Shown here: positions 1 to 31,912 of the stretch, one piece after another
Numbering within the stretch: position 1 is the stretch's first letter
Layout: every line of letters starts with the position of its first letter
IMG/VR virus record: IMGVR_UViG_3300024229_000651
DNA length: 64,000 bases
DNA from: a virus
Taxonomy: Duplodnaviria > Caudoviricetes
Direction: 5' to 3' (one strand)
The notes under the pieces: generated by a model
The model's database searches: none
What the model was told of the DNA's origin: nothing
The model's input: the letters and a program-made list of their open reading frames with translations, nothing else
Program-made: the position numbers and the translations under genes

Positions 1-265
1 AAAATTTGGGGCTACCGATGACCTACAGCCAAAAACTTCAATCATTTCAAGCACTTAGCCGGTACCCCATGGTAATTATTGGAATTTTTATTTTTTTTTA
101 TTTTTTCAGTTTTTTCTGTTGACTGCACTGCCACAGTGTGCGCAACTTGGGGTCGCTGTGTATGTATGGTATACACTTACCACACTGGGTACCACACAGT
201 GCTATCCTCTCACTACAGTGTGTGAAGTCACTGGTGGTAACGGCTTTGCATATGCATATGATCAT

Positions 266-457
266 CTACTTGAAGTAACGCAGCACTAACAGGATCAGCA
301 CCAGCACACCTAACACATAACTCAGCGGCCAGTATAACATGATCCATAACAGTAATGCAATACCCACCACAGCAGGCAGTAAGCTGACTAGGCTTAATGT
401 GAGCTTGACTATCACATAAGCAAACAACAGTAACAGTGCTACAGTTAACAGTTCCAT
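266..457 (-). CDS. small hydrophobic membrane protein
   Basis: 63 aa, almost entirely hydrophobic; abuts the upstream ORF. Confidence 0.6.
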   Translation of the reverse strand: MELLTVALLLLFAYVIVKLTLSLVSLLPAVVGIALLLWIMLYWPLSYVLGVLVLILLVLRYFK

Positions 458-958
458 CTATACATCACACTGTGTAAAGTAGTCACTGAGTTCACTGTAC
501 TGTAGTGTCTCGCCTGTCACCATGACATAACTGTTGGTGTGACTGTTACGCTCACCATCGCGGCCCATTGTGAAAGTTTCAGTTTGGCTTTGGATCTCAG
601 AACGCATGTAGCCCATGTCACCGTTAAGTGTAACACGAGTGGCGCACCACAGTAACGATTCACTGTCGAAGGTTAACACATATGGGCTATCCCATTCCTC
701 ACACACATCAGTATGATCATCCTGGATCATCCAGTCAATGATGTACTCTTCGAACATTTCCGAGCGGCTTTCGATGAGGCATCTCAGCGTGGGGATGCCG
801 TCCACAGCAATCTTATCAATGCTGCGGCGGCTGAGGTTCTCCACAACGTAGGTGGCACCGCCCTTCATCTTCCAATATTGAGGACATGAACCCTCGCCAT
901 CCCAGTCGTGGGCGCCGTAGTTTTCGCGATGCTGTGTGAGGATAACCAACTTGCTCAT
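458..958 (-). CDS. hypothetical phage protein
   Basis: 166-aa ORF directly downstream of a consensus promoter. Confidence 0.7.
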   Translation of the reverse strand: MSKLVILTQHRENYGAHDWDGEGSCPQYWKMKGGATYVVENLSRRSIDKIAVDGIPTLRCLIESRSEMFEEYIIDWMIQDDHTDVCEEWDSPYVLTFDSESLLWCATRVTLNGDMGYMRSEIQSQTETFTMGRDGERNSHTNSYVMVTGETLQYSELSDYFTQCDV

Positions 959-993
959 ATGCTCTACTCTTGTTGCGCTAGTGTATGTGTTAC

Positions 994-1022
994 ATTATAC
1001 CGGATTTTGTGGTACAAGTCAA
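994..1022 (-). promoter_or_regulatory. sigma70-type early promoter
   Basis: minus strand TTGACT-17 bp-TATAAT. Confidence 0.85.
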
Positions 1023-1028
1023 CCTTTT

Positions 1029-1289
1029 TTACTGTGCTGCCAACATGCTGAGTGGTACATTGTACCGCTGTCCACCATTCATGCGCACAATGGCCTTCTT
1101 GATGTTCACCTTCTGCACCACACCAGGTGTACGCTTGGTCTTCTGCACAACCCATACAGTGTCACCAACACTGATGCTGCGCTTGCTGTTCTCAGTCTTC
1201 TGATTGATGCAGAACTGTGTGAGCAAACTGAGCTGCTCATTGTCCAGGTTCGCCGCTAGGATTGCACTTTGGATACTGTGTAAACTCAT
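1029..1289 (-). CDS. hypothetical protein, possible SH3/KOW-like C-terminus
   Basis: 86 aa; VGDTVWV...GVVQKVN pattern; has its own promoter. Confidence 0.6.
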   Translation of the reverse strand: MSLHSIQSAILAANLDNEQLSLLTQFCINQKTENSKRSISVGDTVWVVQKTKRTPGVVQKVNIKKAIVRMNGGQRYNVPLSMLAAQ

Positions 1290-1323
1290 ATTTTTCTGCT
1301 CTTTGATTGTTTAATATGTGTAT

Positions 1324-1352
1324 ATTATACTGGATTTTGCGGCACAAGTCAA
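1324..1352 (-). promoter_or_regulatory. sigma70-type early promoter
   Basis: TTGACT-17-TATAAT. Confidence 0.85.
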
Positions 1353-1357
1353 CCTTT

Positions 1358-1693
1358 TTAGCTGACTGCAGCAAAGGTGTTTATCACATCACCGTCCACG
1401 TCAAAGCTCACATAGTCATAACCCTGCATGCCCTGCTCACTGTAACTGGCTTCACCCACAATGCCAAGATCACTCAGTAGGTTATTAACACCCTTCACAA
1501 ACCCCGAATCTGTGTATATCAATCCGCTGGCTTCCACATCCCAAGTATCCTCATCAAAGTATACTCTCAGCTCACCATATTCACTACTAGTGTCAACATG
1601 TGATAACTCCACGCTGGTCACACGAACAGCACGTTTCTCACTAGTATACAAACCCTTACCATCTGTGTGTAACACTGCGTTCAACTTGATCAT
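1358..1693 (-). CDS. hypothetical acidic phage protein
   Basis: 111-aa ORF with its own promoter. Confidence 0.7.
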   Translation of the reverse strand: MIKLNAVLHTDGKGLYTSEKRAVRVTSVELSHVDTSSEYGELRVYFDEDTWDVEASGLIYTDSGFVKGVNNLLSDLGIVGEASYSEQGMQGYDYVSFDVDGDVINTFAAVS

Positions 1694-1728
1694 ATGTAGT
1701 AGTAACCTTTTGCTTAACTATGTATACT

Positions 1729-1756
1729 ATTATACTGATATCTAGACAGAAGTCAA
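1729..1756 (-). promoter_or_regulatory. sigma70-type early promoter
   Basis: TTGACT-16-TATAAT. Confidence 0.75.
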
Positions 1757-2319
1757 CCATTATTTCTGGTAGAAAAAAGCCATATATTTCATGGTGTTAC
1801 ACACTGTACAGTCACAATGTGGCATTATAGAAGTTTCCGCTGCAGCGAAATAGTTGGAGATACCATGCACACACTGTAACTGCATGATTTTGCTACAGTT
1901 TTTCAAAATTTGATTTGTTCCGGTATAGACGCTAAGTTTTCTGCACTGTGAGACACCCACAAAATACCCACACTGGGCGAATATTCTCCGAAAAACCACA
2001 CAATTCTGCACAATTCTACACTTTTCTACACCCTGCACGGTGCATAGTGCAGCAGTATTGTGGTATGTCTCAGTATGGTTCTGTGCTGTATACACATTGT
2101 GTTACTGTGTACTGCGTGGTGTGTAGTGCTGTGTATAATATCCACCTAAAACTGTTCACACAGTGATATTAATGTTATTGCCTTTGTATTGTTCAAGCAG
2201 TCTGTATCTACGTATGTACAATAACACATTGTGATCAGTCACGCCTCTGCTCACATTACCGTAGCTTAACTGTGAGGGTAGTGGGTATTTTTTGCGTTTT
2301 GCGCCGCGGGTCGCTTCGC

Positions 2320-3393
2320 TCATAAAGGGGTCACCTGGTTGCTCAATTGGTTGTATGCAGTATCATTAAGCTCACACCATGCACTGTTTAACTGTATTCT
2401 TTCAGTGGGTTTGCTGCTCAGTGTTGGCACACTTGTGTTCAGTTCAGTACTTATATGTGGGAACAGTTGTTGAGTTGGTGTGTGATGATGGTATGTGGTT
2501 AACTGCACATTATCGGGCAAAGTTTGTTGTGTCAGAGTGCTCAGTATGGGATAGTCACTGTACAGTTTGAATTGATGATCAATCCAGTTGCGCATCTGTT
2601 GACTGTGTGTGTTGGTATAACTGTGTTGCTTTACTAACTGAATCAGCTGTTCAACTTCACTTGGTTTCAACACAGCACTGAGATGATTGATCCAACTGTG
2701 CATTCGTTCTGTGGGGTTTCGCAAGCCTATTAACAGCTGCACACTGTGAAAGTTTCTGCTGAGTGCATTCACAAAGGTGATTAATTTGTGCTGTCTGTGC
2801 GGCACACTGTGAATCAGTTGAGCAGTTGTGGTGTGATGTTTCACAGTGTACTGCTGTTCATTGGTGAACATTCCGCCGTTTGTGAGTGTGGGTGCAAACG
2901 CCACTATGGGTAAATCACTTAATGTGTCATCACAGTCTCCCCACAATAATGTGTTTGGTTCAACACTGTGAGGGTAGTTCAACTCTGTGCTCAGCCAGGG
3001 TATGTGTTGTTGACAGTTGTGTGTCACACTGTAATGCTGAGGATTTATATCCAGTGTGTGGTTGTTCAGTCTGTTTAACCATAACTGTATCACACTGTCA
3101 ATGTGGGGATTTTCTGTTTGACTGTGTAATGGATGCCCTGTGGTGCTATGTGCATACAGTCTGTTCACTGAAGGATCTTCTTTGATGTTGTTGGCCAACA
3201 TGTAAATGCTGCCAGTTAGTGGATGGTTATGTGGTAACTTTCTGCTGAGTACCCACTGTAATAGCTGTATTTGACTGCGAGGAATGTTCATCTGAGTGCT
3301 CACACCAAACTGATTGTTGTGCAACAACAGATTGAACAGATAGGTGGTGCTGGTTCGTGTGGGGCCTAGATGCAGTATCAACTGTTTTTTCAT
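2320..3393 (-). CDS. sulfotransferase-like P-loop protein
   Basis: N-terminal LILHLGPTRTSTTYL resembles the 5'-PSB loop; later LLIGLRNPTER resembles the 3'-PB motif. Confidence 0.5.
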   Translation of the reverse strand: MKKQLILHLGPTRTSTTYLFNLLLHNNQFGVSTQMNIPRSQIQLLQWVLSRKLPHNHPLTGSIYMLANNIKEDPSVNRLYAHSTTGHPLHSQTENPHIDSVIQLWLNRLNNHTLDINPQHYSVTHNCQQHIPWLSTELNYPHSVEPNTLLWGDCDDTLSDLPIVAFAPTLTNGGMFTNEQQYTVKHHTTTAQLIHSVPHRQHKLITFVNALSRNFHSVQLLIGLRNPTERMHSWINHLSAVLKPSEVEQLIQLVKQHSYTNTHSQQMRNWIDHQFKLYSDYPILSTLTQQTLPDNVQLTTYHHHTPTQQLFPHISTELNTSVPTLSSKPTERIQLNSAWCELNDTAYNQLSNQVTPL

Positions 3394-3401
3394 TATAACT
3401 G

Positions 3402-3409
3402 TATTTATA
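3402..3409 (-). promoter_or_regulatory. T4-like late promoter TATAAATA
   Basis: exact TATAAATA 9 nt upstream of the 3393 start. Confidence 0.55.
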
Positions 3410-3480
3410 TGCCATAAAAAAATGCAGACGCTGAATAGCGGTCTGCATCTGAATCCTTTCTACACTTGCAACATTTGTTC

Positions 3481-4182
3481 TTATGGTTTTTCCAGTACAA
3501 TATTATTTATCAAACTGTTAACACTGTGAGCCAGTTGAACCAATTCAGTTGACAGTAGATGGTATTGATCTCCCACTGAACCATCCTCAATTGACTGTAA
3601 ATGATCAGCTATCATAGCCACACTGTGTGGGTTCCACTGTGTGTTAATTGTGGATTTTGCCCAACCGTAACACTGGCTGTGGTAACCTGACGTGTAGTCG
3701 TTTTCAGTGGAGAGATGTGCTTTCACATGGTTTATGCCTGGGTGTAGCAGTTGCCGTATGGGTCCTGCACCACCTAACACTATGGTTTTTCCTTGTGGTA
3801 ATGCCTGTTGCCACTCCGATTGAATTTTCTCACACCATTCTGTGTGCTGTTGTGGAGTGTAATCTTTGAACTTGTTGTGTAGTCGTTCGTGGTAACTGTG
3901 TGGGTCAGATGATGTTATCCATATACCATCCAGGCATTCTATCTCAGTGTTTAAGAAGATTCTGTAAGGACAAGTGGCGAACACAACCACACAATCATGC
4001 TGTTCGTGGGTCTGAGTTATGATGGTTTTACTCACATTCAAGCAGGTTGCTGGCTGGCAGTAATTGGTAACTGTGTGTCCGTGGCTGTTCAGTGCTTTAC
4101 AAAATTCACTGGGTGAGCTTGCGCTTCGAGGTCCTCTTGTCCAATCCCATGCCCAACTGTCGCCGTATACACCTATATTCAC
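3481..4182 (-). CDS. SGNH/GDSL-hydrolase-like protein
   Basis: N-terminal IGVYGDSW block and C-terminal DxxH (DQYH). Confidence 0.5.
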   Translation of the reverse strand: MNIGVYGDSWAWDWTRGPRSASSPSEFCKALNSHGHTVTNYCQPATCLNVSKTIITQTHEQHDCVVVFATCPYRIFLNTEIECLDGIWITSSDPHSYHERLHNKFKDYTPQQHTEWCEKIQSEWQQALPQGKTIVLGGAGPIRQLLHPGINHVKAHLSTENDYTSGYHSQCYGWAKSTINTQWNPHSVAMIADHLQSIEDGSVGDQYHLLSTELVQLAHSVNSLINNIVLEKP

Positions 4183-5567
4183 TGTGCATATTTCCGTATG
4201 TTGTTATAACTTTTTGTGACTTCTGCTAGTAGTTTTCTATTAAGTGGCGGCTGCTGATGAGGTAACAAAGGCCAATCAGCATTGGCTAATGATTTTTTAC
4301 CGAAATTATTTAAACTGTTCATATCATCGGGCATAATTTCGGAGAAAACACTTTTTACATACTGTTTGTCGTGTAGTCGATCAGTATCATATATTACCAA
4401 CTCACAGTTGGATGGCAGTGCACCCTTATCTAGTAATCGATCAAAGTGGCAATAACTTGCGTGAGTCATACACCACAAGTAATAGTATCTAATTTCGTCT
4501 CTGAGAGCATCAGTTATTTTGTTCCTATGCACGTTCATGAGACTGGTTATGCGTATGTCGTTCAGTTCAGCGTACTCTATATCTCTTAAAAGTTTTTCTA
4601 AGTCTTTTGTTTTTAAGATTTTGCTTTGCTTGATACGATTTATAATTTTTGTGTGGAATACTCTGCTGTCCAGACCTAATTGGCTTGTGTATCTTGCTTC
4701 AGGATCTCGCATGCCGATTACTAGTTTTACGTTGTCGTATTGACTGGATAAGCAATGTACTTGATCTAATAGTTGCTGTTGTTCAGCCGGAAGCCAATTT
4801 TCTAAATAGTCATCAATGCTGGCTTGCCCATTTTGTGTGTCTACATTAAATCTTGTGCTGCACAAATAAGCATCACCTGTTGCAATTGTTTTAACACTGT
4901 CGTCGTTACTGAAATCGAAACTCACACCTAAGTCACGCAATACTCCTCGCCAACTTGGCATTAACCTCAACTCCCACAGTTCTCTTTGTTCCCAATCACC
5001 ATCTACTTCAGGAGTAGGACTCTTGAGCGCATGAAAAATACTGTTGTTGCGAGACTGTATCTTGTCTTCAGAAAGGTGAGAAGTGGTGTGCGGCAATACA
5101 TGATGAAAGGCCGACATCACCGGAGCCATTCTTGCAAATGACTGTACTATATTAGATTGCACAGGCGGCAGTGTGTTAATCCACTGTTCCATTTTGGGCC
5201 ACGTGCCTAATTGGCTTTGGGTAGCCAACCTGTTTCTATAAAGTTGTTCAAATTCGATATATTTTTCTTTGTCTAGTACACCACCACGCATGCCTGTAGC
5301 AGACAACAGACTTCGTTGCCCAGCCAAATACATAGGAGGATCTTCTTTTGTCACTATGTTTAATGTAAACAACATAGCATCGAGCAGTTGTTTTTCTTGG
5401 TCGCTGGAGGGTATTGTGTTCCTAACTTTGTATATAAAGTCTAACCAGTCTTGACTGTGATTTACTTTTACAGTTTTATTATACAGTTGATTATCAATAA
5501 TAGTATCCCAAAGCCACGTAGTACCTGTTCTTGCAGGGCCCAGATGTAACATTAAGTTTCTATTCAT
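4179..5567 (-). CDS. sulfotransferase-like P-loop protein
   Basis: MLHLGPARTGTTWLW and LVIGMRDPEAR motifs; paralog of 2320..3393. Confidence 0.55.
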   Translation of the reverse strand: MNRNLMLHLGPARTGTTWLWDTIIDNQLYNKTVKVNHSQDWLDFIYKVRNTIPSSDQEKQLLDAMLFTLNIVTKEDPPMYLAGQRSLLSATGMRGGVLDKEKYIEFEQLYRNRLATQSQLGTWPKMEQWINTLPPVQSNIVQSFARMAPVMSAFHHVLPHTTSHLSEDKIQSRNNSIFHALKSPTPEVDGDWEQRELWELRLMPSWRGVLRDLGVSFDFSNDDSVKTIATGDAYLCSTRFNVDTQNGQASIDDYLENWLPAEQQQLLDQVHCLSSQYDNVKLVIGMRDPEARYTSQLGLDSRVFHTKIINRIKQSKILKTKDLEKLLRDIEYAELNDIRITSLMNVHRNKITDALRDEIRYYYLWCMTHASYCHFDRLLDKGALPSNCELVIYDTDRLHDKQYVKSVFSEIMPDDMNSLNNFGKKSLANADWPLLPHQQPPLNRKLLAEVTKSYNNIRKYAQ

Positions 5568-6597
5568 CGATAAGTTCTACTTTGGAACAAAAAGGATACT
5601 GTTGTAAGAAGTCTTTTAGGCTTTGGTATGTGTGGTTTAGTAGTTTTCCTACTGGTGCTCTGCCCAGTCTATGTTGAGGCTCATTAATATCGTAACCGTA
5701 CTTGCTAACGCCTATGCTGTTCGCCCACCCTTTATATAAATCATACGTGCTTATAGGTGGATCAGGTCTGTCTAGTTTACTGGTGTAGTCCCACATGTCG
5801 TCAAAGTCGTGTGGCTTACCAAAGAACATTTCACTGCAAGCAAATGCAGTACTGCCGCTTATCACAGTTTGGCTTTTTACTTCCTGTTTGCGTATCAACT
5901 CAGCATCTTTTGTGGAGTATGCTGCTTGCATGTCTTTGCCAACAGTAAAGTAGTCACTGAACAAGTCCCCATTCAGCGTGTTCTGTGAGAAACATTTATA
6001 TATTTCGTCAGTGCATTCAGGGAATAGATGCCTTACATGATCACTGCTGTGACGTATCACTGTGAAGCAGTCAGCCATCCATCGCTTACTGTCCACAGTC
6101 TTTTCTAGTTCGTGCACCAACTTGTTCAATCTTTCTAACACTATGAACAGTTGAGGCTCTGCGGTGAGTTGGACATGGTTGTCTTCTAGCACACTCTCAA
6201 ATGCAAAGTGTATTCTGTTCAGTCGATTAAGAAACTCCTCTGCAGATAGTTCATAATTCACTTTGTAACTGTCATCGAAGTCAATATAATTGTGTTCAAC
6301 ACACCAGTCCATATCACTGTGTAGTTGCTGTATATATTCTAATGCAGCATCGTCAGTTTTATAAACATTCTGATAATGATTCCAGCTGACCCAGCGTTTT
6401 GGGCTAGTGTTACTTTCGTCGCAATCATCCACAGCAAAAATCATTTGTGTGCTTTCCACAAATGCTTTGCCTGCAGCGCTGTTGATTATTTCCCATTCTA
6501 GATAAGTGTTGCTGATCCTTTCTTGCACAAAAGTGTTTGTGCCAGTGTGGTCAGTTTCGCCTATGGGGTCTGCACTAAAATAAACTCTGTACTTCAT
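5560..6597 (-). CDS. hypothetical protein
   Basis: 345-aa ORF overlapping the next gene; GATAAATA at 6604-6611 upstream. Confidence 0.7.
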   Translation of the reverse strand: MKYRVYFSADPIGETDHTGTNTFVQERISNTYLEWEIINSAAGKAFVESTQMIFAVDDCDESNTSPKRWVSWNHYQNVYKTDDAALEYIQQLHSDMDWCVEHNYIDFDDSYKVNYELSAEEFLNRLNRIHFAFESVLEDNHVQLTAEPQLFIVLERLNKLVHELEKTVDSKRWMADCFTVIRHSSDHVRHLFPECTDEIYKCFSQNTLNGDLFSDYFTVGKDMQAAYSTKDAELIRKQEVKSQTVISGSTAFACSEMFFGKPHDFDDMWDYTSKLDRPDPPISTYDLYKGWANSIGVSKYGYDINEPQHRLGRAPVGKLLNHTYQSLKDFLQQYPFCSKVELIDE

Positions 6598-6615
6598 GTA
6601 CAGTATTTATCGGTG

Positions 6616-21513: not shown

Positions 21514-22191
21514 TTATTTAGATGAGTTTACAATGTTCATGAATTCAGCACGAACGTCTGGTTCGTTCTTAAAGCAACCTCCTAGCTTGCTAGTGATTGT
21601 TGAGGAGCCTGTGTCCTCGACACCTCGACTCTTAACGCAATAATGTTGTGCATCAACAATAACTCCAATATTGGGCGTATCTAATATATACGACAATGCA
21701 TGATAAACTTGTTCAGTTAATCTTTCTTGGATTTGTGGACGTTTAGCAAAATATTCAACAACTCTGTTAAGTTTACTAAGTCCTAGCACTCTTTCATTTG
21801 GGATGTAGCCCACTGTAGCAACACCATCAATTACAACAAAGTGATGCTCGCAGTTTGATTGAACATTAATGTTACGCTCAATAACCATTTCGTCGTACTT
21901 CATTTTATTGTCTACTGCTGTACACTTTGGGAATGCTTCGTAGTCAAGTCCCCAAAAGATTTCGTTAACATACATCTTTGCCACACGCTTAGGTGTGTCC
22001 ATAAGACTGTCATCTGAAAGGTCTAGCCCCATGACGTTCATGATGTTTTTAAAGTGTTCTTCGATTAGATCAATTTTATCTGTACGAGAAAACCCGTTGT
22101 TATCAACTGGTGTTTCAACACCCATCTTTACTAGATGTTCGTGTACTCTGCGACCCAGATCTGGGTCAGTTTTAGTCTTATTATAAGCCAT
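21514..22191 (-). CDS. folE: GTP cyclohydrolase I
   Basis: TPKRVAKM, CEHH, GLSKLNR, RPQIQERLT, HYCVKSRG. Confidence 0.96.
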   Translation of the reverse strand: MAYNKTKTDPDLGRRVHEHLVKMGVETPVDNNGFSRTDKIDLIEEHFKNIMNVMGLDLSDDSLMDTPKRVAKMYVNEIFWGLDYEAFPKCTAVDNKMKYDEMVIERNINVQSNCEHHFVVIDGVATVGYIPNERVLGLSKLNRVVEYFAKRPQIQERLTEQVYHALSYILDTPNIGVIVDAQHYCVKSRGVEDTGSSTITSKLGGCFKNEPDVRAEFMNIVNSSK

Positions 22192-22262
22192 TCGATTCTC
22201 CTTCCTAACGCGGATTTAAATTTTTGAATTGTGTTGCTACCTTTGTGTAGCATTTATATTTA

Positions 22263-22469
22263 TCAACTGTCAAGTTTGATAATACCATTTTCCCAATTTT
22301 CTACTACATCCTCAGCATAGTGGATGCTTTTATTGAGCAATGTACGTGTCTCTTTCATAACACCATCCTCGAACAAGTCGACGACATAAGTCATGTCAGG
22401 GCCTTTAGTACCATCGCTGATATATTTAACTTTTCTTATTTTTGCAATACGTTCCATTACTTCCACCAT
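22263..22469 (-). CDS. hypothetical protein
   Basis: 68 aa between the PRTase and folE. Confidence 0.55.
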   Translation of the reverse strand: MVEVMERIAKIRKVKYISDGTKGPDMTYVVDLFEDGVMKETRTLLNKSIHYAEDVVENWENGIIKLDS

Positions 22470-22921
22470 TCCTCATAAGGAAAAACGATCCAATTGTTAT
22501 CCTCAAGTTCAATTTCTTCTGCATAATAGTCTACACCATCGAACGAACTTGATTGCTTGTTAAATATTGTAGCATATCTGATGTCAGAATACAAGCTATT
22601 ATTTTTATTAATAGCTTCAGATATACCAGACAGAGTGCTACCAGTGTCGTTGATATCATCGATAACAAGAATATCTGTGTTACTATGATTGCTTAAAATA
22701 CTTTGTAGTTGTTCAGCATCTTCGAAATCACCATCCCTTGTTTGCCAGTTGAATCCTTCGAACGGAACGTTTAAATAGTGACTGAGCATTACACCGGGTA
22801 TATATCCTCCTCTACCAGGCCCAATTACTACACCTGGATTAAACGAGTCCAAGGAAATCATACGCACCAAATCAGCAAGGTATGATTCTAAATCATCCCA
22901 TGTATAAAATTTCTTCATCAC
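22457..22921 (-). CDS. purine (xanthine-guanine-type) phosphoribosyltransferase
   Basis: YTWDD, VLVIDDINDTGST PRPP loop, WIVFPYE. Confidence 0.88.
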   Translation of the reverse strand: MMKKFYTWDDLESYLADLVRMISLDSFNPGVVIGPGRGGYIPGVMLSHYLNVPFEGFNWQTRDGDFEDAEQLQSILSNHSNTDILVIDDINDTGSTLSGISEAINKNNSLYSDIRYATIFNKQSSSFDGVDYYAEEIELEDNNWIVFPYEEWWK

Positions 22922-23901
22922 GTTTTCCTTTTAGATTTTGCAGATTGCCATTTGATCTCATCTCTGATAATATCTTCAATAGACATAGCAGGACTCCATC
23001 CTAATACTTTAGCGGCTTTGCTATTATCTGCAAAAGTACCTACCATATCACCCGGTCGCCTAGGCGTAATAGATGTATCAATCTCTGTGTCTAGTTCTTT
23101 TGCAACCAGATCAACAAGTTGTTTTGTGCTGACAGGATTGCTACTACCAATGTTTAATGTAGTTGAATCGCCACCGTCACTCAAGTAGTTAACAGCGGAT
23201 TGGAACGCTCTTGCAACGTCACTCACGTGGGTATAGTCACGAATGTTTGTTCCGTCTACAGTGTCGTAGTCGTCGCCGTTAATCTCAAACCCTTCGTTCT
23301 CCATAGCTTTTCGTGTAAGTATGGGAAGAACATGAACAAGCGGATCTTTTTGATAACCGTATCGGCCATTAGCACTGCCTGCAACATTAAACAGTCTCAA
23401 GTTAACAAAGTTAAAATCGTTTGCCGTTGCATAGTCTTGGATAATTTGCTCACAGATCATTTTTGATCTGCCATATGGATTGATTGGACTTAGGCTATCG
23501 TCTTCTTTGAACATACCATTGTCTTGTTGGCTTGTACCGTATACACTACTACTTGATGCAAATATAAAGTTCTTTACACCAGCGTCAGCGCAGTTATTAA
23601 GCAAGTTGATTGTTTGATAGACATTTTGTGTGTACGTGGTCGCCGGGTCCTTCATACTAGCTGGTACACTGTTATTTGCCGCTATATGAATAACTACATC
23701 AGGTTTAAGTAACTTTAATATACCGTTAACTTGTTTGTTATCAACCTCAAACGGGTATTGGGTTACACCTTCTAATGTGCGTTTGCTTTTATCAATGTTA
23801 ACAACATTGTATCCGCTGTCTGATAACAATCGACAAACGTTACTTCCAATAAAGCCGCTGCCTCCCGTTACAACCACAGATTTTTCTGTTATGTTATTCA
23901 C
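22918..23901 (-). CDS. galE: NAD-dependent nucleotide-sugar epimerase (GalE-like)
   Basis: VTGGSGFIG, SSSSVYG, YGRSK, RDYTHV; GTG start at 23901 with GAGGA RBS. Confidence 0.88.
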   Translation of the reverse strand: MNNITEKSVVVTGGSGFIGSNVCRLLSDSGYNVVNIDKSKRTLEGVTQYPFEVDNKQVNGILKLLKPDVVIHIAANNSVPASMKDPATTYTQNVYQTINLLNNCADAGVKNFIFASSSSVYGTSQQDNGMFKEDDSLSPINPYGRSKMICEQIIQDYATANDFNFVNLRLFNVAGSANGRYGYQKDPLVHVLPILTRKAMENEGFEINGDDYDTVDGTNIRDYTHVSDVARAFQSAVNYLSDGGDSTTLNIGSSNPVSTKQLVDLVAKELDTEIDTSITPRRPGDMVGTFADNSKAAKVLGWSPAMSIEDIIRDEIKWQSAKSKRKT

Positions 23902-24952
23902 TTGTGTGTCCTCTAATAATTGTGTACAGTTTCTCACCACTGAAAAACTCTTTTCTTAAATTGCTTTCCAAATCTTGTATTCGATTATCTCGTTCGTAAC
24001 TAGGAGTAAGAACTGCTTGTATGTATTCAACTATCTTATCCTTGTGGTTCAAATAGCTGTCCCAATCCTCTGTCCATGCACTTGGATATTTAAAGTAGTC
24101 ATCGTACATCTCTGTATAACTAAGTCTGTCTGGAACAATAGGTTGAGCACCTACAATGGCTCCTTCGTAACAACTGATGCCTAATGTTTCTTGTGTGTTA
24201 GCACTGAACACTGCTTTGGCTTTACCAAGTAGATCATGATACTCGTCTTTGGTTAGCGTTTGTTCCTGACAAACAATAAAGTCTGTGTCTGGAAAGCTGT
24301 TAGCTAAGTCTTTGAAAATATCAACTTGTTTTTCAGGTGCGACCCGATGAGGGAATAGTACAATATCTTCTTTGTCGGCAGAAGTATGTGTGTCTAATAA
24401 TCCCTTCATGTACTCCATTGGCCAACCCACTTTGTGAATTTTATTTAAATCCACATCTGGGAATGCCTCTAAAAATAATTCTATATGAAAGTCGGTAGCA
24501 TAAAAATTATCATCGAAGGCATTGAACATTGCAAGTTCTGTGTGTCTGCACCATGGAGCGTTACCTATCAGCCTTCCTAAAAAGTCTGCTGGGTCATAAC
24601 TACCGGCATGCCACATGCCTCCGATTTTAATTTTTACATCAAGTAATTCAGCCATATACTTTAATTGAAGAACTGTAGGGTTCCAAGCATCAGTGTATAA
24701 GAAGTAGTCTCCGTCTTGTACAGTACCGTCTGCAAACATCTGGCTAATTGTTTTCAGTTGCTCGCTTTTCCAGTAATTAGTTCCACTGAAGTTTAAAAAT
24801 GCTCCCGGAGTTGTGTCTTGAGGAGCATCAGCTGGTCCCTCTATAACATGTACCTCTAGCCCAGCATCACGCATTTGCTGAGGCAAATGCTTTTTCCACT
24901 GCGCAGTGTATCTTGTTTCTACAGGTTCTATTTCAACTAAGTATACTTTCAT
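23894..24952 (-). CDS. GT-B (GT4-like) glycosyltransferase
   Basis: FPHRVAPEK and QETLGISCYEG (E-x7-E) motifs. Confidence 0.75.
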   Translation of the reverse strand: MKVYLVEIEPVETRYTAQWKKHLPQQMRDAGLEVHVIEGPADAPQDTTPGAFLNFSGTNYWKSEQLKTISQMFADGTVQDGDYFLYTDAWNPTVLQLKYMAELLDVKIKIGGMWHAGSYDPADFLGRLIGNAPWCRHTELAMFNAFDDNFYATDFHIELFLEAFPDVDLNKIHKVGWPMEYMKGLLDTHTSADKEDIVLFPHRVAPEKQVDIFKDLANSFPDTDFIVCQEQTLTKDEYHDLLGKAKAVFSANTQETLGISCYEGAIVGAQPIVPDRLSYTEMYDDYFKYPSAWTEDWDSYLNHKDKIVEYIQAVLTPSYERDNRIQDLESNLRKEFFSGEKLYTIIRGHTSE

Positions 24953-24954
24953 AA

Positions 24955-25137
24955 TTACATGCTGTTCTTTTTATCTTGAATTTCTGCACGTCTAGTCTTA
25001 GCTAGTTTACCTAAATCGCCTAATGCTTTACGAGCACGAGCTGATGCAGCTTTCACACCCTTTGATTCGAATTTTTCACTCTCCTCTAAGTATGTTTCCA
25101 TTGCCGCTTTGATTTGTAAATGTGTTTCTGAACTCAT
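24955..25137 (-). CDS. histone H1-like Hc1-family DNA-binding protein
   Basis: KGVKAASARARKALGDLGKLAKTRRAEIQ signature. Confidence 0.8.
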   Translation of the reverse strand: MSSETHLQIKAAMETYLEESEKFESKGVKAASARARKALGDLGKLAKTRRAEIQDKKNSM

Positions 25138-25153
25138 AGTTCTCTCCTTAGTG

Positions 25154-26188
25154 TTATTCCGTATTTGATACGGATTCGATTATGGCACCATAATTTTTTT
25201 GATATTCCATTAGGGTGTCGTAATTATGTTGTAATATTTCTGCAGTTTCTAGTGAATACATATCGATATGCATTTGTTTAATGGACAGTCCTTTTAGCTG
25301 TTCCAGCACATGATTCATTCTCTTGTCGTCATCGAGCGAATCGTATCTTTCGTCAAATATGTGTGGGAAGGTTTTAAATCCCATTTTGCGTAACTCTTTC
25401 AATGAATTTTTATTACCGATAAGTAAGAAAGGTCTCTTATTATATATGCTTCGGAATATCTTCTCACTGAAAAATACTGGTTCCCAATGCGCTAATTGTG
25501 CACAATGAAACTGATCATGGAAATAAAATGTTTCAGGGACCAAGTCGAAGTAAGTTCTATCGTAAATATCAAAAAACTCTTTCCCTGGATCTTGAAAGGT
25601 TCTGCGCTCCATTACAGTTTTGTGTCCCTCAGCAGACTTTGGAACTTTGTCGTGAAACCATGGATGTAACTCTTCCTTAAAGTCGTTTATCCATGTCCAT
25701 TCGCAACTGTCAATGAGATTATTTTCGTAGATATAATTCATTGCTTCGATACGATGGTCTCTTGGCTCTCCGCACAAGTATGTGAATAACTTTTCTCTGT
25801 GGGTATTGTTTCGTAATACCTCATATTGTGCATGGTAATCAGTTGTGTTTGTGACAAGTACGGATGCCCAAATTGGATAGTATGCTACAGTTAGTCTACT
25901 ACTTGGGTTGTTTTCTTTGCACCACATATCGTATAGATCTTGGACATTAACATTACCCCACCATAGTGTTACTAAACTGGGGTCAACGGATGCAATACTG
26001 CACTGCTCGTATATAACAGTAAACAAGTCCATGCCACGAGAAGTGTGAGTAGATTGCCTATCCGGATCTATAAAAAGCCCGCCCTCAGTGATTAAGTCCA
26101 TTGAGATAGTCTCGCCAGCTGGCATCAGGGCTAACTCTTCGTGCAAAGTTTCGCCTGGGTAACCTGAATACAGCTGGATATGATTCAT
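25154..26188 (-). CDS. putative glycosyltransferase-like protein
   Basis: YFDLVPET...FFSEK...RPF C-terminal block resembles GT10-type motifs. Confidence 0.4.
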   Translation of the reverse strand: MNHIQLYSGYPGETLHEELALMPAGETISMDLITEGGLFIDPDRQSTHTSRGMDLFTVIYEQCSIASVDPSLVTLWWGNVNVQDLYDMWCKENNPSSRLTVAYYPIWASVLVTNTTDYHAQYEVLRNNTHREKLFTYLCGEPRDHRIEAMNYIYENNLIDSCEWTWINDFKEELHPWFHDKVPKSAEGHKTVMERRTFQDPGKEFFDIYDRTYFDLVPETFYFHDQFHCAQLAHWEPVFFSEKIFRSIYNKRPFLLIGNKNSLKELRKMGFKTFPHIFDERYDSLDDDKRMNHVLEQLKGLSIKQMHIDMYSLETAEILQHNYDTLMEYQKNYGAIIESVSNTE

Positions 26189-26556
26189 TCCTGATACTCT
26201 ATTTCACAACCATTTTCGTTGTCTTCTGCAACAGATATCTTTAGCCAGCGGTCTGGGTACTTGGCTTGTACATGCTCCGCTAAATCATCTGCGATCATTT
26301 CACAGCTCTTGTAATCCAACTGCAATGTGTCTTGTGTGTACAGTCTTTCCATCCAGCGTTTAAACTGAATAAACTCCACGTCTCTGTCATTGTGGAACAC
26401 TTCAAGCCAAACTTTAAAATGGAATATATGTCGGTGGGGATATCCTAAAAAAGATACGTCATCCCAATCGCCTGTTGCTAGATTGGGATCAGTATCAGCG
26501 CCTGGATACTTGTGTACACCTTCCTTTTGAAACGTTACCCAAATACTTCTCATCAA
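26185..26556 (-). CDS. QueD-like T-fold protein (DpdL candidate)
   Basis: LGYPHRHIF, RDVEFI, SCEMIA, EDNENG. Confidence 0.65.
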   Translation of the reverse strand: MMRSIWVTFQKEGVHKYPGADTDPNLATGDWDDVSFLGYPHRHIFHFKVWLEVFHNDRDVEFIQFKRWMERLYTQDTLQLDYKSCEMIADDLAEHVQAKYPDRWLKISVAEDNENGCEIEYQE

Positions 26557-26626
26557 TCGTCCTCAGTTTTTATTACTATCCAAACTACTAGTATACTAAA
26601 CAATATTCCTGCAAATGCATATTCCA

Positions 26627-27103
26627 TTACGCATCACTACCAAACGTATCGATATACTCTGCTAGGTCTTTGATGTCATCCTCTGACAACATACCTGCTT
26701 GCCCCCACATAAGTGCACTCTGTGCCCCTACTGTTTCTCCTGCTTTGTAACTACGTAAACGATCTACGATATATTCCACAGTCTGTCCTGCAAGCATGGG
26801 ACCAACTCCGCCTTGCCCACGTGCTCCGTGACAAGCACCACAAGAAGCATATTTTGCTTGCCCGGGCATAACATCAGCAGATGCTAATTGCACTCCGGCG
26901 CTTACAACATAGGCACTTGCTGACCCAGTAAAGTTTGCAGGTTCAGCAGATACGTGAACTACACCGAAGCCTTTGATTCTTTCTTCGATGCCTGCTAGTT
27001 GTTCTTTTGTAGTATCAGTACGTTTTGCTGCGAACACAGCTTGCTCGCCACAGCCGCCAATGAACAGTGTTGCTGCTAAGATTGTTGTTGTTAATAGTTT
27101 CAT
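26627..27103 (-). CDS. class I c-type cytochrome (c553/c4-like) with export signal
   Basis: CGACH heme motif, GPMLAGQ, distal Met (ALM); N-terminal signal/lipobox-like LFIGGC. Confidence 0.88.
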   Translation of the reverse strand: MKLLTTTILAATLFIGGCGEQAVFAAKRTDTTKEQLAGIEERIKGFGVVHVSAEPANFTGSASAYVVSAGVQLASADVMPGQAKYASCGACHGARGQGGVGPMLAGQTVEYIVDRLRSYKAGETVGAQSALMWGQAGMLSEDDIKDLAEYIDTFGSDA

Positions 27104-27333
27104 GTGTTATCTCCGTCAAAATATTTAACATCACTTTTATTAAAAGGTTTATTATCGTCGCCTTTGACCAAAGAAACTAGTCGGGCGATCTCGTCTTTAA
27201 CCTTGAGTTTGGTTTTCTTAAGAAAGTTTACTCGCATATCACCTTCATAGTTTTCACTTGCAAGCTCAATTTGACTATCAAGTCTTTTGTGTTTTGTTTT
27301 AAGAACTTCAATTCTATCTTTCATTGTAGTCAT
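27100..27333 (-). CDS. DUF465/YdcH-like protein
   Basis: LKTKHKRLDSQI...LKKTKLKVKDEI. Confidence 0.65.
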   Translation of the reverse strand: MTTMKDRIEVLKTKHKRLDSQIELASENYEGDMRVNFLKKTKLKVKDEIARLVSLVKGDDNKPFNKSDVKYFDGDNT

Positions 27334-27511
27334 CTTCTTCTCCTCCTAAGCACTTTCTGTCTTCAGGTTCAATTGGATTATCGTAATAATCGTGCGTTCC
27401 TGCTCTGTACCTTGCTTTCTTTTCGCTGACTAGAACACAACTCATATATGCCATCCATCCCATGCCCGCAAGAAAAATCAAACTGAATATAGTTTGTATT
27501 ACTTCAATCAT
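27314..27511 (-). CDS. small membrane protein
   Basis: N-terminal TM helix. Confidence 0.55.
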   Translation of the reverse strand: MIEVIQTIFSLIFLAGMGWMAYMSCVLVSEKKARYRAGTHDYYDNPIEPEDRKCLGGEEDDYNER

Positions 27512-27629
27512 CGGATAGCTCTGCCGTTGTGTTATAAAGACCTTTCATACTTTCGATAACTGCAATAATCTCTTCGACTTCGTCAGCATCATCTTTAGTA
27601 TCAATTTCTATTTCAATTTTAATTTTCAT
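27504..27629 (-). CDS. 41-aa acidic protein (not in ORF track)
   Basis: manual translation MKIKIEIEIDTKDDADEVEE...; TTGACT-17-TATAAT at 27636-27664 directly upstream. Confidence 0.5.
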   Translation of the reverse strand: MKIKIEIEIDTKDDADEVEEIIAVIESMKGLYNTTAELSDD

Positions 27630-27653
27630 AATAATATTATACTGTATATAGGA

Positions 27654-28100
27654 TCAATAGTCAACCATTTTATTTGGCGTATCACCCCTTTGCTCCCTCA
27701 AATTCACCTTTTCCAAACTAAGTTTATCCTTCAAACTCAATACATATGCACTCGCAGCAAGTATAGCAATACCTGTTGTTTCATAAAGTATAAATTCAGG
27801 CTCAGTTCCTTTAGTTGTTAATACAATCATTCTAGTCAGTGCTGTGATTGCAATAATGATAGGTAGTGTGACTGGTATTCTATGATCTTTATAAAATGCA
27901 CCAACCATACCTAATATTTCTGCGTAAATAAACAATAGGAATAAGTCGGCCAATGCCATCTTTCCGCTTGTTGTGAACATATGCAAAATATCAAACCCAG
28001 CTGCCCATACTGTACCTGCTACAATAAACAATAGCAATGCTTTTTCCATATGCATAATAATTCTATGGACAGAGTTCTTATATTTTCTACTGAATGACAT
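27654..28100 (-). CDS. psiE: phosphate-starvation-inducible PsiE-family membrane protein
   Basis: LADLFLLFIYAEI...IPVTLPIIIAITALTR. Confidence 0.85.
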   Translation of the reverse strand: MSFSRKYKNSVHRIIMHMEKALLLFIVAGTVWAAGFDILHMFTTSGKMALADLFLLFIYAEILGMVGAFYKDHRIPVTLPIIIAITALTRMIVLTTKGTEPEFILYETTGIAILAASAYVLSLKDKLSLEKVNLREQRGDTPNKMVDY

Positions 28101-28630
28101 TACTCTATTACCTCGTCGCCCACATATTCAGTCCAATCGGTGTACTTGGATCTGTCTTTGAGGTCGTGTAAACTGTGGCACCAAACACCTGTGTTTGTTC
28201 CTTTGAATGATTTATCATCTAGTTTGAGTGTTGTATTGTAGTTAAACAATTTGATATTCGGAAGTCGAACAGCAATCATAGGGATAAATTTATTGTAGTC
28301 AGTCCAGCCGTTATCGTGAAACCATTCGTGATTAGCATAGGAGCTGTCGAAATCAAGTGTGACCCATACATCAGCGTCTAACAGTTGCGTAATAATGTAA
28401 TCCCATTCTGCCCACGAGTTCGAATCATCTTGTGGCTGAAATGAGTCAGCACATCCTAAGTACACATGATCAATTTTGTTGTTTAGACATCTTGCTAAAA
28501 TCTCCTTAACATTTTGTCTACCAATAACAAACAACGTTTTTTTGCCATACAGAGGAGTATGCTCAACTTCAGTACCAATAAAGAACTTTGGATCGTCTCC
28601 AAAGTTGGTCCTACCTTCTACTGTTGCCAT
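28100..28630 (-). CDS. hypothetical protein in the dpdA operon
   Basis: 176 aa; overlaps both neighbours; GTEVEHTP...TLFV and GVWCH motifs. Confidence 0.7.
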   Translation of the reverse strand: MATVEGRTNFGDDPKFFIGTEVEHTPLYGKKTLFVIGRQNVKEILARCLNNKIDHVYLGCADSFQPQDDSNSWAEWDYIITQLLDADVWVTLDFDSSYANHEWFHDNGWTDYNKFIPMIAVRLPNIKLFNYNTTLKLDDKSFKGTNTGVWCHSLHDLKDRSKYTDWTEYVGDEVIE

Positions 28631-29508
28631 GTTAAATATGTCCTGTTCTTGTCTATGCTTGTTGTTCTGTTGTTAAATGCAGTACCGGCTTCTGTAGTAG
28701 GATACTCGGCGCCCCACATATCGTCAACGTTAATGATATTCTTTTGTACTAATAAGTTTGCCTTAACCATACTGTTATAAAACGTTTTTGTTCTCGGACT
28801 AGGAAAATCCGTTCTAATCGATTTCCATAGAAACGGAGCAAAGTCTACATCACCGTGCTTCTCTGCACACATTAAATAGTGACCATTGTTATTAAGTATG
28901 TCGGCAGTAAAATACTTTATATGACTCGACAAGTCGACAACTACATCATACTGATCAGATAGATTATGTTCTCGCCTAGCACCTTTATCATCCCACCAGT
29001 CAGAGTATGCTTTACCTGTTACTGTAACATTACGTAATCTGCTTTTGTTATTGTACTCTAACACTTCATATATTACTCTTGCTAAGAAGCCTGTGCCTAT
29101 CATTAGCAATGACCTATTACCTAATTTACCAATTATGTCTGCAATGTTTACAGCACATGCCACAGGCTCTAGTATATATTTAGGCATTGCCGCTGGAACA
29201 ACAACAAATTCTCCGTCTCTAACATTATAGTAGTCTGCAAATGCAGGCTCTCCTCTAGTGGCTACAATGTCGCCTACCTTTGCAGTACTTACATTTTTGC
29301 CAACAGACATAACTTCGCCTAGCCCTTCATGCCCGTGCATGTTATCAGGCAACATGTTCATGTCACCATTAAACATGGCTACGTCACTACTGCATATACC
29401 TGTGTATATAGACTTAACTACTATTTGGTCTTCGGTGTGTTCAGGTTTATCCCACTCGATATGAGATATTGTCTTATCGCTGTTCACTTTAATTAAATTA
29501 CATTTCAT
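28618..29508 (-). CDS. zinc-binding (MDR) dehydrogenase-like protein
   Basis: GICSSD, GHEGLGEV, GDIV, EPVAC. Confidence 0.85.
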   Translation of the reverse strand: MKCNLIKVNSDKTISHIEWDKPEHTEDQIVVKSIYTGICSSDVAMFNGDMNMLPDNMHGHEGLGEVMSVGKNVSTAKVGDIVATRGEPAFADYYNVRDGEFVVVPAAMPKYILEPVACAVNIADIIGKLGNRSLLMIGTGFLARVIYEVLEYNNKSRLRNVTVTGKAYSDWWDDKGARREHNLSDQYDVVVDLSSHIKYFTADILNNNGHYLMCAEKHGDVDFAPFLWKSIRTDFPSPRTKTFYNSMVKANLLVQKNIINVDDMWGAEYPTTEAGTAFNNRTTSIDKNRTYLTWQQ

Positions 29509-30379
29509 TTTCGTGGTACCTTTCTAGCTGACTATGTATCCATAGATCCATATCAATGTGGTCTTGGTAACTATCTTTCTCTGAACGTGCTATCATTCTT
29601 CCGTATGCGTCATTAGGGCATAACCCAAACCGCCATTCGTATGTGCTGTCTTCTGTGTATACTTTTACACTCTGATCATCAATGCCAGTCTTCCATCCTG
29701 CTTTTATTGTAACAGGCACATTGTTCCAAGTCCAATGCTCTTCGGCATAGTCACACACATCATATACACCTTCTGCATTTACATTACCGTAGTTTGTTGA
29801 TAATAATTCTTCTAGTTCCCACTGTCTTGTTTTAGTATGGCTCACAAAAGACATCTCTGTTAACGGAACAATTTTACTTAGGTTACAATATAAGTGTGGG
29901 AACAAATCTAAAGCCACTCCACCCCATGCAAGTTTTTTATTTGTGAACCAACTACCCGGACTAGGAACACGATTTGCATTCAACCATGATACTTCAATCT
30001 TGGTTGGTCTTATACTCTTATTCAACAGATCGTCTAGTGCGCCGTATGATGTTCGATATAGATTATTTTTACACATGATGTACTTTGTATCAGTGTATCT
30101 ATTCTGCAGGCGTGTTAATGCTTCCACACTGGGTAAACCAGGCTTTTCAATAAACACAGTTTTGCAATACATACCAACTTTTTCGGCAATAGGAAGGTGT
30201 GTAAAATTAGGCGTACAAATAACAGCAACATCAAATTCTCCACGAACATCGTCGACGTTGTTATAATTTGCTGTAACAACTTGCTGATCCACAGTTGTGA
30301 CTGTGTACCCTAACTGAGTTAACTCAGGTAAGTAAACGTTAGACCCTATACCCCCTAGACCAACAAGTAATGCTCTCAT
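29498..30379 (-). CDS. Gfo/Idh/MocA-family oxidoreductase
   Basis: VGLGGIG, ICTPNFTH, EKP, GGVALDLFPH. Confidence 0.85.
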   Translation of the reverse strand: MRALLVGLGGIGSNVYLPELTQLGYTVTTVDQQVVTANYNNVDDVRGEFDVAVICTPNFTHLPIAEKVGMYCKTVFIEKPGLPSVEALTRLQNRYTDTKYIMCKNNLYRTSYGALDDLLNKSIRPTKIEVSWLNANRVPSPGSWFTNKKLAWGGVALDLFPHLYCNLSKIVPLTEMSFVSHTKTRQWELEELLSTNYGNVNAEGVYDVCDYAEEHWTWNNVPVTIKAGWKTGIDDQSVKVYTEDSTYEWRFGLCPNDAYGRMIARSEKDSYQDHIDMDLWIHSQLERYHENEM

Positions 30380-31911: not shown

Positions 31912-31912
31912 C

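Follow-up and report, generated by a model that had tools for sequence, protein, structure and literature searches.

A conserved compositional island at a hypervariable cassette of a T4-like jumbo phage, and the CACAGTG heptamers that it contains

A DNA-level compositional domain of about 8 kb, conserved between lineages, coincides with a recombining hypervariable gene cassette in the viral genome from which the DNA analysed here is taken; this coincidence is well supported. The analysed DNA, called the window below, is a stretch of 64,000 nucleotides from a virus of the Caudoviricetes (IMG/VR record IMGVR_UViG_3300024229_000651), and it occupies positions 25,549-89,548 of a 339,794-bp record that is linear, 91% complete and without end repeats. 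A T4 gp23-type major capsid protein is encoded in the same record, and the genome is that of a T4-type (T4-like) jumbo phage of a marine family. The domain, referred to here as the island, is a hyperplastic cassette at the convergent junction of a glycan/peptide-tailoring locus in this family of phages. It is rich in CA/TG, AC/GT, CAG/CTG and CAGT/ACTG and poor in CpG and A/T runs, and the CpG deficit and the dense copies of the heptamer CACAGTG (or its complement CACTGTG) that a first-pass annotation had noticed at the left of the window are by-products of this composition.

Extent, composition and divergence of the island

Sliding windows and per-gene statistics show that the island extends about 3.5 kb to the left of the window, to genome position 22,000. 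Its two parts are as follows, with negative window coordinates denoting positions to the left of the window:

Genome 22,000-29,800 (window -3548..4252): island core, delimited by composition and divergence; CpG-poor, rich in CA/TG, AC/GT and CAC/GTG, with GC about 5% higher.
Window 4251..6600 (to genome about 32.1 kb): shoulder, with an observed/expected ratio (o/e) of 0.5-0.7 for CpG and 1.3-1.55 for CA/TG and with intermediate divergence; it spans the genes for a 462-aa and a 345-aa protein.

The first-pass annotation had described the heptamer-rich stretch as a left end, which is just the left edge of the window, since the window begins 25.5 kb inside the contig; the stretch is internal. 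The underlying counts are exact: all 13 heptamers in window positions 1-4200 lie where they were reported, and there are 10 CG dinucleotides in 2341-3420 and 20 in 33001-33600. The copies described as scattered elsewhere are indeed sparse (11 more in the other 59.8 kb of the window), the reported CpG depletion is reflected in an o/e of 0.34-0.58 in the first 4 kb as against 0.81 genome-wide, and the protein encoded at 2320..3393, which has 357 aa, is H/Q/T/N-rich as stated.

There is one outstanding compositional island in the genome: CpG is at its lowest there, and CA/TG, AC/GT and CAC/GTG reach their maximum. Its CpG o/e is 0.2-0.5 and so does not match that of the rest of the genome (median 0.82), its CA and TG o/e are 1.5-2.2 as against 1.2 for the genome, AC and GT are also raised, and its GC content is 0.42-0.48 as against 0.39. 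The top eight genes of the genome by CA+TG o/e, together with the lowest CpG o/e values, are all located at 23.4-29.7 kb, and the gene for the 357-aa protein has a CpG o/e of 0.20, which is the minimum among 304 open reading frames (ORFs) of at least 100 aa. The CpG depletion is uneven across NCGN words. Relative to the rest of the genome, the enrichment is 2.6-fold for CAC/GTG, 3.8-fold for CACA/TGTG, 7-fold for CACAC, 4.8-fold for CAGTG/CACTG and 15-fold for TCACAC, while the A/T-rich words CTAA, TAAA, TTAAAA and AATTTA are depleted or absent. Under maximal-order Markov models, the only irreducible excesses are those of dinucleotides, of CAG/CTG (z 5.5) and of CAGT/ACTG (z 3.4). On the left, the island begins within the gene for a 1953-aa repeat protein, of which only the C-terminal 280 or so residues (genome 22,000-22,836, window -3548..-2712) have the island composition and raised divergence.

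The divergence of the island can be evaluated by comparison with syntenic loci found in marine metagenomes by exact-protein look-ups, which share protein identities of about 98% (L019), about 68-94% (L015/L016) and about 50-90% (L017/L018) with the present genome; L011-L013 and the more distant L025 are further syntenic relatives. Nucleotide divergence in the island is about 10-fold (3-12 times) above that of the flanks, with differences from L019 of 3-12% in the island and 0.4-1.1% in the flanks. Synonymous divergence (dS) is 0.09-0.26 in the island and 0.016-0.05 in the flanks, a 4-10-fold difference, and the ratio of nonsynonymous to synonymous divergence (dN/dS) is 0.2-0.8 as against 0.07-0.2. 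Protein identity to L015 is 93-98% in the flanks and 50-84% in the island, and gene content differs as well, since L017 has genes for proteins of 231 aa and 114 aa and lacks an 86-aa gene that is present here. The spectrum of changes is also altered: the transition/transversion ratio is 0.8 in the island and 2.05 in the flanks (Fisher P=4e-6), A<->T and C<->G are over-represented among the changes in the island (P=0.01), and many of the differences are adjacent multi-base clusters. Across 500-nt windows an index of the composition is correlated with divergence (Spearman rho 0.67-0.78). The present genome is nearer to L017 than to L015 at 22.4-22.8 kb and at 25.6-26.0 kb, with the reverse in the flanks, and these mosaic distances imply recombination at the locus.

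Five further lineages, at 30-98% protein identity, carry the same signature at the same locus. It is present at the syntenic place in L011-L013, L015, L017, L019 and L025, where the flanks are normal, and the shift in these relatives starts in the last 0.8 kb or so of the gene for a giant protein of 1950-2160 aa and ends after the gene for a 233-aa protein; L010, a partial relative that is not syntenic, is without the signature. Synonymous sites between the lineages are saturated (dS > 1). DNA acquired once from a foreign source would by now have ameliorated, and it follows that some process actively maintains the composition at the locus.

One way in which the composition could be renewed is the repeated import of alleles from an unsampled donor that has the signature throughout its genome, in which case the island would never ameliorate. 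Such imports would account for the mosaic ancestry and for the sharp boundaries, of which the left one lies in the giant glycosyltransferase gene, where the L015 and L017 distances switch. However, searches of 5.8 billion and 1.84 billion proteins returned only a handful of relatives, all in the same synteny and with flanks of normal composition. No relatives of the island genes were found in 185,579 bacterial/archaeal species genomes, INPHARED gave nothing useful by DNA or by protein, the JGI metagenomes contained only a near-identical copy, and the sole match in IMG/VR, which was searched with single proteins and by alignment, was to the N-terminus of the 704-aa neighbour gene, in a non-syntenic setting without the signature. 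The composition, moreover, grades through the shoulder and correlates with divergence. A foreign allele pool is accordingly considered quite unlikely.

Many metagenome contigs from relatives (L011, L012, L013, L014, L020 and L025) are short, with a terminus located within the island or next to it, which is consistent with microdiversity breaking the assemblies at this place.

Two other parts of the genome have some of the features of the island. A second CpG-poor stretch, at window 29,500-32,500 (genome 55-58 kb; CpG o/e 0.48-0.62), is a different phenomenon, because it is without CA/TG excess. The sole other gene that approaches the island profile is an ORF of 1168 aa (window 57,997-61,503, minus strand), in which the o/e of CA and AC is about 1.55 and there is no strong CpG loss.

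The level of the bias and the status of the heptamer

The composition bias is a property of the DNA and not of the proteins, because all codon phases and the non-coding DNA share it and because it survives shuffles that preserve the amino acids. In each of the three codon phases, CAC as well as GTG is enriched by a factor of 1.9-4.2. Codon choice in the island is shifted toward GTG (0.60 vs 0.15), CTG (0.31 vs 0.08) and CAG (0.60 vs 0.32) and toward NNC over NNT, and among the amino acids H, C, W and Q are raised and K, F, A, D and G lowered. Synonymous shuffles that keep both the amino acids and the local codon usage (n=500) contain 5.5 ± 1.9 heptamers, with a maximum of 12, while the coding sequences of the island contain 16; the same sequences contain 132 CpG, compared with 204 ± 7 in the synonymous shuffles and 176 in a second null. 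The heptamer excess and the CpG deficit thus persist under the codon-shuffled null that the first-pass annotation had proposed as a check. The contribution of each level may be seen stepwise, the number of heptamers being 0.8 for a typical gene, 2.0 with island amino acids and genome codons, 5.5 with island codons and 16 in the real order. In the non-coding stretches of the island CpG o/e is 0.22-0.64, and CAC+GTG occur at 50-83 per kb, compared with 26 per kb in other intergenic DNA. A protein-level cause is thereby ruled out, by the codon-phase analysis together with the synonymous shuffles.

It was also considered whether the island might be non-coding junk. This was rejected: there are six open frames of at least 150 codons in the island, compared with 0.5 expected from composition-matched simulations. 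The ORFs are genuine, because their lengths far exceed those in the simulations, full-length orthologues exist and dN/dS is below 1. Adaptation of early genes to host tRNAs was rejected as well, since the bias is missing at the 41 other minus-strand sigma70-type promoters of the genome and the set of 10 phage tRNAs does not correspond to the shift in codon use. An excess of quasi-palindromes or other structure was likewise rejected, the fold z relative to dinucleotide shuffles being -0.19 in the island and about -0.45 in the flanks.

A bias at the nucleotide level could also arise from selection on the RNA, if the converging transcripts were to lack CpG and UA- or AU-rich nuclease targets for the sake of stability or in evasion of a host RNase or toxin. 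The depletion of TpA in the coding parts of the island, the avoidance of GTA, CTA and TTA codons and the depletion of AU-rich words are in keeping with this, but TpA is not depleted in the non-coding stretches, the bias is strand-symmetric, with CAC as frequent as GTG on the sense strand, and the raised dS and altered substitution spectrum would be left unexplained. RNA-level selection is therefore judged very unlikely.

The heptamer itself is strongly concentrated in the island, which has 20 of the 71 copies in the genome (22.0-29.8 kb, 2.56 per kb as against 0.149 per kb elsewhere; P=3e-18); at the background density 0.62 copies would be expected in the first 4200 nt of the window, where 13 are observed (P(>=13)=2e-13). 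The number expected in the island is 4.9 at Markov order 1, 12.5 at order 3 and about 15.6-18 at orders 4-5, and under the maximal-order model the island has no excess at the 7-mer level.

The possibility that CACAGTG is a specific recognition site, either for a binding protein or as a heptamer of the transposase/recombinase type, and that it is kept dense for this reason, can be evaluated on the pooled islands of six lineages, which contain 105 copies in 36.8 kb. There the heptamer is the commonest 7-mer (it is first or second in the island of each lineage), and its count exceeds the 73.8 expected at order 3 (z ~3.6); in addition, two copies, in a 27-nt block and a neighbouring block, are invariant in four lineages. 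The order-5 expectation is 89.4, however, and sister words are nearly as frequent (CACACTG 99, ACACTGT 85, and also ACACAGT). The flanks of the copies have nothing in common, the spacing contains no 10-11-bp (helical) or other periodic signal, and the switch in heptamer orientation at the strand change mirrors the ordinary coding-strand asymmetry of the sub-words. The relatives have about three heptamers per kb at the locus, yet the positions differ between orthologues, the only positionally conserved copies being those at 132 and 195, inside an ORF for a 55-aa peptide. A specific recognition site is thus highly improbable. The heptamer is a word that the bias in short words favours, and any preference beyond this is modest at most; it is not a discrete site, because short words largely explain its count, its positions and flanks vary and its spacing carries no signal. 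The suggestion of the first-pass annotation that the copies form an array of binding sites does not hold, given that local order-4/5 Markov models nearly reproduce the count and that positions turn over; an array like iterons or parS was rejected on the same grounds, there being no discrete motif with conserved flanks or positions and no regular spacing. Over-represented words such as CACAGTG should not be read as sites before the local composition has been modelled.

Candidate forces and comparable systems

The explanation that we favour, tentatively and at somewhat less than an even chance, is a local substitution regime associated with recombination in the hyperplastic cassette; that recombination is the cause is our inference. 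The locus would be a recombination hotspot. When related phages co-infect a cell, heteroduplexes would form there or breaks be repaired between their genomes, and the recurrence of such events would subject the locus to substitutions that are biased by context and in part involve several nucleotides. At equilibrium this regime would yield the composition observed in the island, with CACAGTG/CACTGTG as its most frequent product. The regime is favoured because it accounts jointly for the increase in dS, the change in spectrum, the mosaicism, the gradation through the shoulder and the way in which composition correlates with divergence.

Several points weigh against this explanation. Changes that could be polarised have no net drive (64 AT>GC, 75 GC>AT), which fits an equilibrium and is no guide to the force behind it. 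Balancing selection that keeps old alleles, rather than a raised input of mutations, could account for the high divergence. An invariant block in the 55-aa peptide ORF is itself CA/TG-rich, which means that purifying selection acts on a portion of the signal. Family searches of the proteins yielded no candidate enzyme within the island or next to it, and we know of no biased mismatch repair in T4-type phages.

Selection might instead act on the physical character of the DNA or on its binding of proteins at the zone of convergent transcription, where DNA that is alternating, flexible or Z-prone and free of A-tracts might be favoured; the agents could be a type II topoisomerase/gyrase, a recombinase that prefers GT-rich DNA or the evasion of a silencer that binds AT tracts. 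The enriched steps are exactly CA, AC, TG and GT, which alternate between purine and pyrimidine and also between strong and weak bases, and AG, GA, CT and TC are not enriched. Runs of A/T are very scarce, to the point that TTAAAA, AATTTA and the like do not occur at all, the bias affects both strands equally and extends to non-coding DNA, the domain straddles the strand switch of two converging operons, and the purifying selection on the CA/TG-rich invariant block is in line with selection of this kind. On the other hand, there is no helical periodicity, no spacing pattern and no fold excess over dinucleotide shuffles, the other early-promoter regions of the genome are without the bias and no binding protein was identified, and a DNA property alone would leave the raised dS, the altered transition/transversion ratio and the mosaicism unexplained. 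Selection on such a property is unlikely, though it has more in its favour than any other alternative to the recombination-linked regime.

The first-pass annotation had itself proposed a distinct mutational pressure. In its general sense the proposal stands, since a DNA-level, locus-specific substitution regime fits the data; the mechanisms that it named, namely CpG deamination or restriction-site avoidance in unmodified, first-injected terminal DNA, do not. The depletion of CpG with an excess of TG/CA is what deamination of methylated CpG would leave, and the early promoters of the island are of a host type, which also speaks for this reading. However, the genome has no match to the cytosine-5 methyltransferase family PF00145, GC is raised and not lowered, and AC/GT are enriched too. 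Neither 4- nor 6-mer palindromes are specially avoided in the island: the median log2 o/e of 6-mer palindromes is -0.03 in the island (P=0.39) and -0.13 in the genome outside 21-33 kb (P=5e-6), so that avoidance is found only in the backbone. First-step-transfer or pre-early regions, as in T5-like phages, lie in a terminal repeat at a fixed genome end. The present phage has a gp23-type capsid, which points to headful packaging, and its island is 22-30 kb away from the contig end; the 41 further minus-strand promoters elsewhere are without the bias. Terminal, first-injected DNA shaped in this manner is scarcely credible as the source of the island.

A more specific proposal, which is speculative and to which we attach little probability, is that T4-like jumbo phages have a locus-targeted system of diversification other than a diversity-generating retroelement (DGR). 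It would act on a tailoring/early cassette of about 8 kb centred on the strand switch and on the inverted-repeat pair described below, raise the substitution rate about ten-fold, and leave a multi-nucleotide, transversion-rich footprint that is rich in CA/TG/AC/GT and poor in CpG. The island is like phage DGRs in that hypervariability is localised at a locus linked to the surface or to host interaction, but it is unlike them in having no reverse transcriptase, no pair of template and variable repeats and no adenine-specific pattern, and in its size, 8 kb as against about 0.1 kb. A DGR was rejected on these grounds: there is no match to the reverse transcriptase family RVT_1, the spectrum is not A-specific, and the island contains no internal repeats besides the promoters and the inverted repeat.

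Hyperplastic regions (HPRs) with promoter early stem-loop (PeSL) promoter/terminator cassettes are described for T4-type phages (Arbiol et al. 2010, PMC2839356; Comeau et al. 2014, PMC4122927). Like these regions, the island is made up of small early genes, mostly orphans, that lie between conserved blocks and vary in content and sequence between close relatives. Modular exchange by recombination is evident in it, and the promoter part of the cassettes, which resembles the PeSL motifs, is repeated, with three copies in the island and others elsewhere in the genome. Unlike HPRs, the island contains genes large enough to encode enzymes, as well as the catalytic end of a giant glycosyltransferase, and a conserved CpG-rich inverted repeat brackets it internally. 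In the part of the PeSL account considered (PMC4122927) there is no mention of a locus-specific dinucleotide signature or of a substitution spectrum peculiar to the locus. The literature that was searched contains no description of such a signature at one phage locus. To our knowledge no dinucleotide signature is associated with HPRs.

Bacterial O-antigen and capsule glycan loci are hypervariable and have an atypical base composition, the anomaly being a low GC content. The island resembles them in its variable cassette of tailoring type, conserved flanks, deeply divergent exchanged alleles and composition unlike the rest of the genome, and differs from them in that its anomaly is a dinucleotide pattern with raised GC, in a virus, in non-coding DNA and all codon phases. 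By analogy, then, the island appears to work like a T4-type hyperplastic region and to resemble the hypervariable glycan loci of bacteria. The type of locus is already known; the signature with its own substitution spectrum is a new feature, and it is rated as such because neither the HPR/PeSL account, in the part considered, nor the literature that was searched describes one.

Hypervariable islands in phages are usually put down to gene shuffling and selection alone, whereas here the fastest-diverging cassette keeps a DNA composition of its own. The persistence of this composition across lineages in which silent sites have been replaced many times over implies a local force, be it mutational, repair-linked or structural, which acts on one locus only. 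Naming that force could show how large phages focus variation on host-interaction and decoration genes without a retroelement, and the signature could serve to find such cassettes in metagenomes.

Genes and repeated elements of the cassette

The part of the island that lies within the window, together with the first gene of the shoulder, contains the following features:

98..265, minus strand: ORF for a 55-aa Cys-rich peptide, starting MIICICK.., with repeated x-C-G/S; heptamers at 132 and 195.
266..457, minus strand: ORF for a 63-aa hydrophobic, membrane-like protein.
458..958, minus strand: ORF of 166 aa, no known family; amino acid identity 88% to L019, 70% to L015 and 57% to L017.
991..1034, minus strand: early sigma70-type promoter cassette, copy 1 (TTGACT-17-TATAAT), PeSL-like.
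1029..1289, minus strand: ORF of 86 aa with weak OB/S1-like Pfam hints, below cut-off.
1321..1364, minus strand: early promoter cassette, copy 2.
1358..1693, minus strand: ORF of 111 aa, no known family.
1694..2155: stretch without a conserved gene call in the relatives, with the full composition signature; an ORF of 111 aa at 1760-2095 is doubtful.
1725..1768, minus strand: early promoter cassette, copy 3, more diverged.
2320..3393, minus strand: 357-aa protein, H/Q/T/N-rich, a distant paralogue of the 462-aa protein; four heptamers.
3481..4182, minus strand: 233-aa protein, no known family; final gene in the core of the island.
4179..5567, minus strand: 462-aa paralogue of the 357-aa protein, sharing N-terminal LGPxRTxTT and RxPxxR motifs; composition near that of the backbone.

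A perfect, CpG-rich inverted repeat of 33 bp, at genome 24,934-24,966 (window -614..-582) and 27,837-27,869 (window 2289..2321), brackets the most divergent 2.9 kb of the CpG-poor, fast-diverging island. In four diverged lineages its 25-nt core, GAGCGAAGCGACCCGCGGCGCAAAA, is without a single change in either arm, the repeat occurs only at these two places in the genome, and each of the two converging operons has one arm directly behind its last gene. An arm does not fold as a hairpin terminator, a role that was therefore rejected, and a search for the core in IMG/VR gave no useful match. The arrangement is like that of the G and C segments of Mu and P1 (gix/cix), in that inverted repeats of about 33 bp bracket about 3 kb beside tail and decoration genes. 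Unlike those segments, however, the island belongs to a genome in which no serine or tyrosine recombinase (Resolvase, Phage_integrase) is matched anywhere in the 340-kb record, and the segment has a single orientation in the assemblies of all five lineages. An invertible segment of the Gin/Cin/Hin type was rejected for these reasons.

The first 41 or so codons of the 55-aa peptide ORF are almost invariant in nucleotides, silent sites included, in five lineages. The strand opposite this ORF is likewise open, and the ORF may carry an extra constraint at the nucleotide level. Downstream of it, at about window 1-90 (minus strand), are conserved non-coding blocks, namely an A-run, an invariant block of about 45 nt, TTCCAATAATTACC followed by GGGGTACCGGCTAAGTG, with two variable bases between them, and a GC stem followed by a T-run, which resembles an intrinsic terminator. 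A search of Rfam found no family, and the genome has no match to PF01702 (TGT).

The 357-aa and 462-aa proteins have no match in Pfam or PHROG and no sequence match in the PDB, and the AlphaFold model of the former has a pLDDT of 53. We take their LGPxRTxTT and RxPxxR motifs to resemble, at the level of the motif, a sulfotransferase-like fold. Orthologues of the 357-aa protein are 51-55% identical and alike in composition, with the histidines among the least conserved residues.

The promoter cassettes are part of a wider set, in which 44 of the 46 TTGAC-N16-19-TAnAAT sites of the whole genome are on the minus strand. Many of the promoter-like sites share an extended sequence between the hexamers, in the manner of PeSL cassettes, at about 38, 67, 77 and 139 kb.

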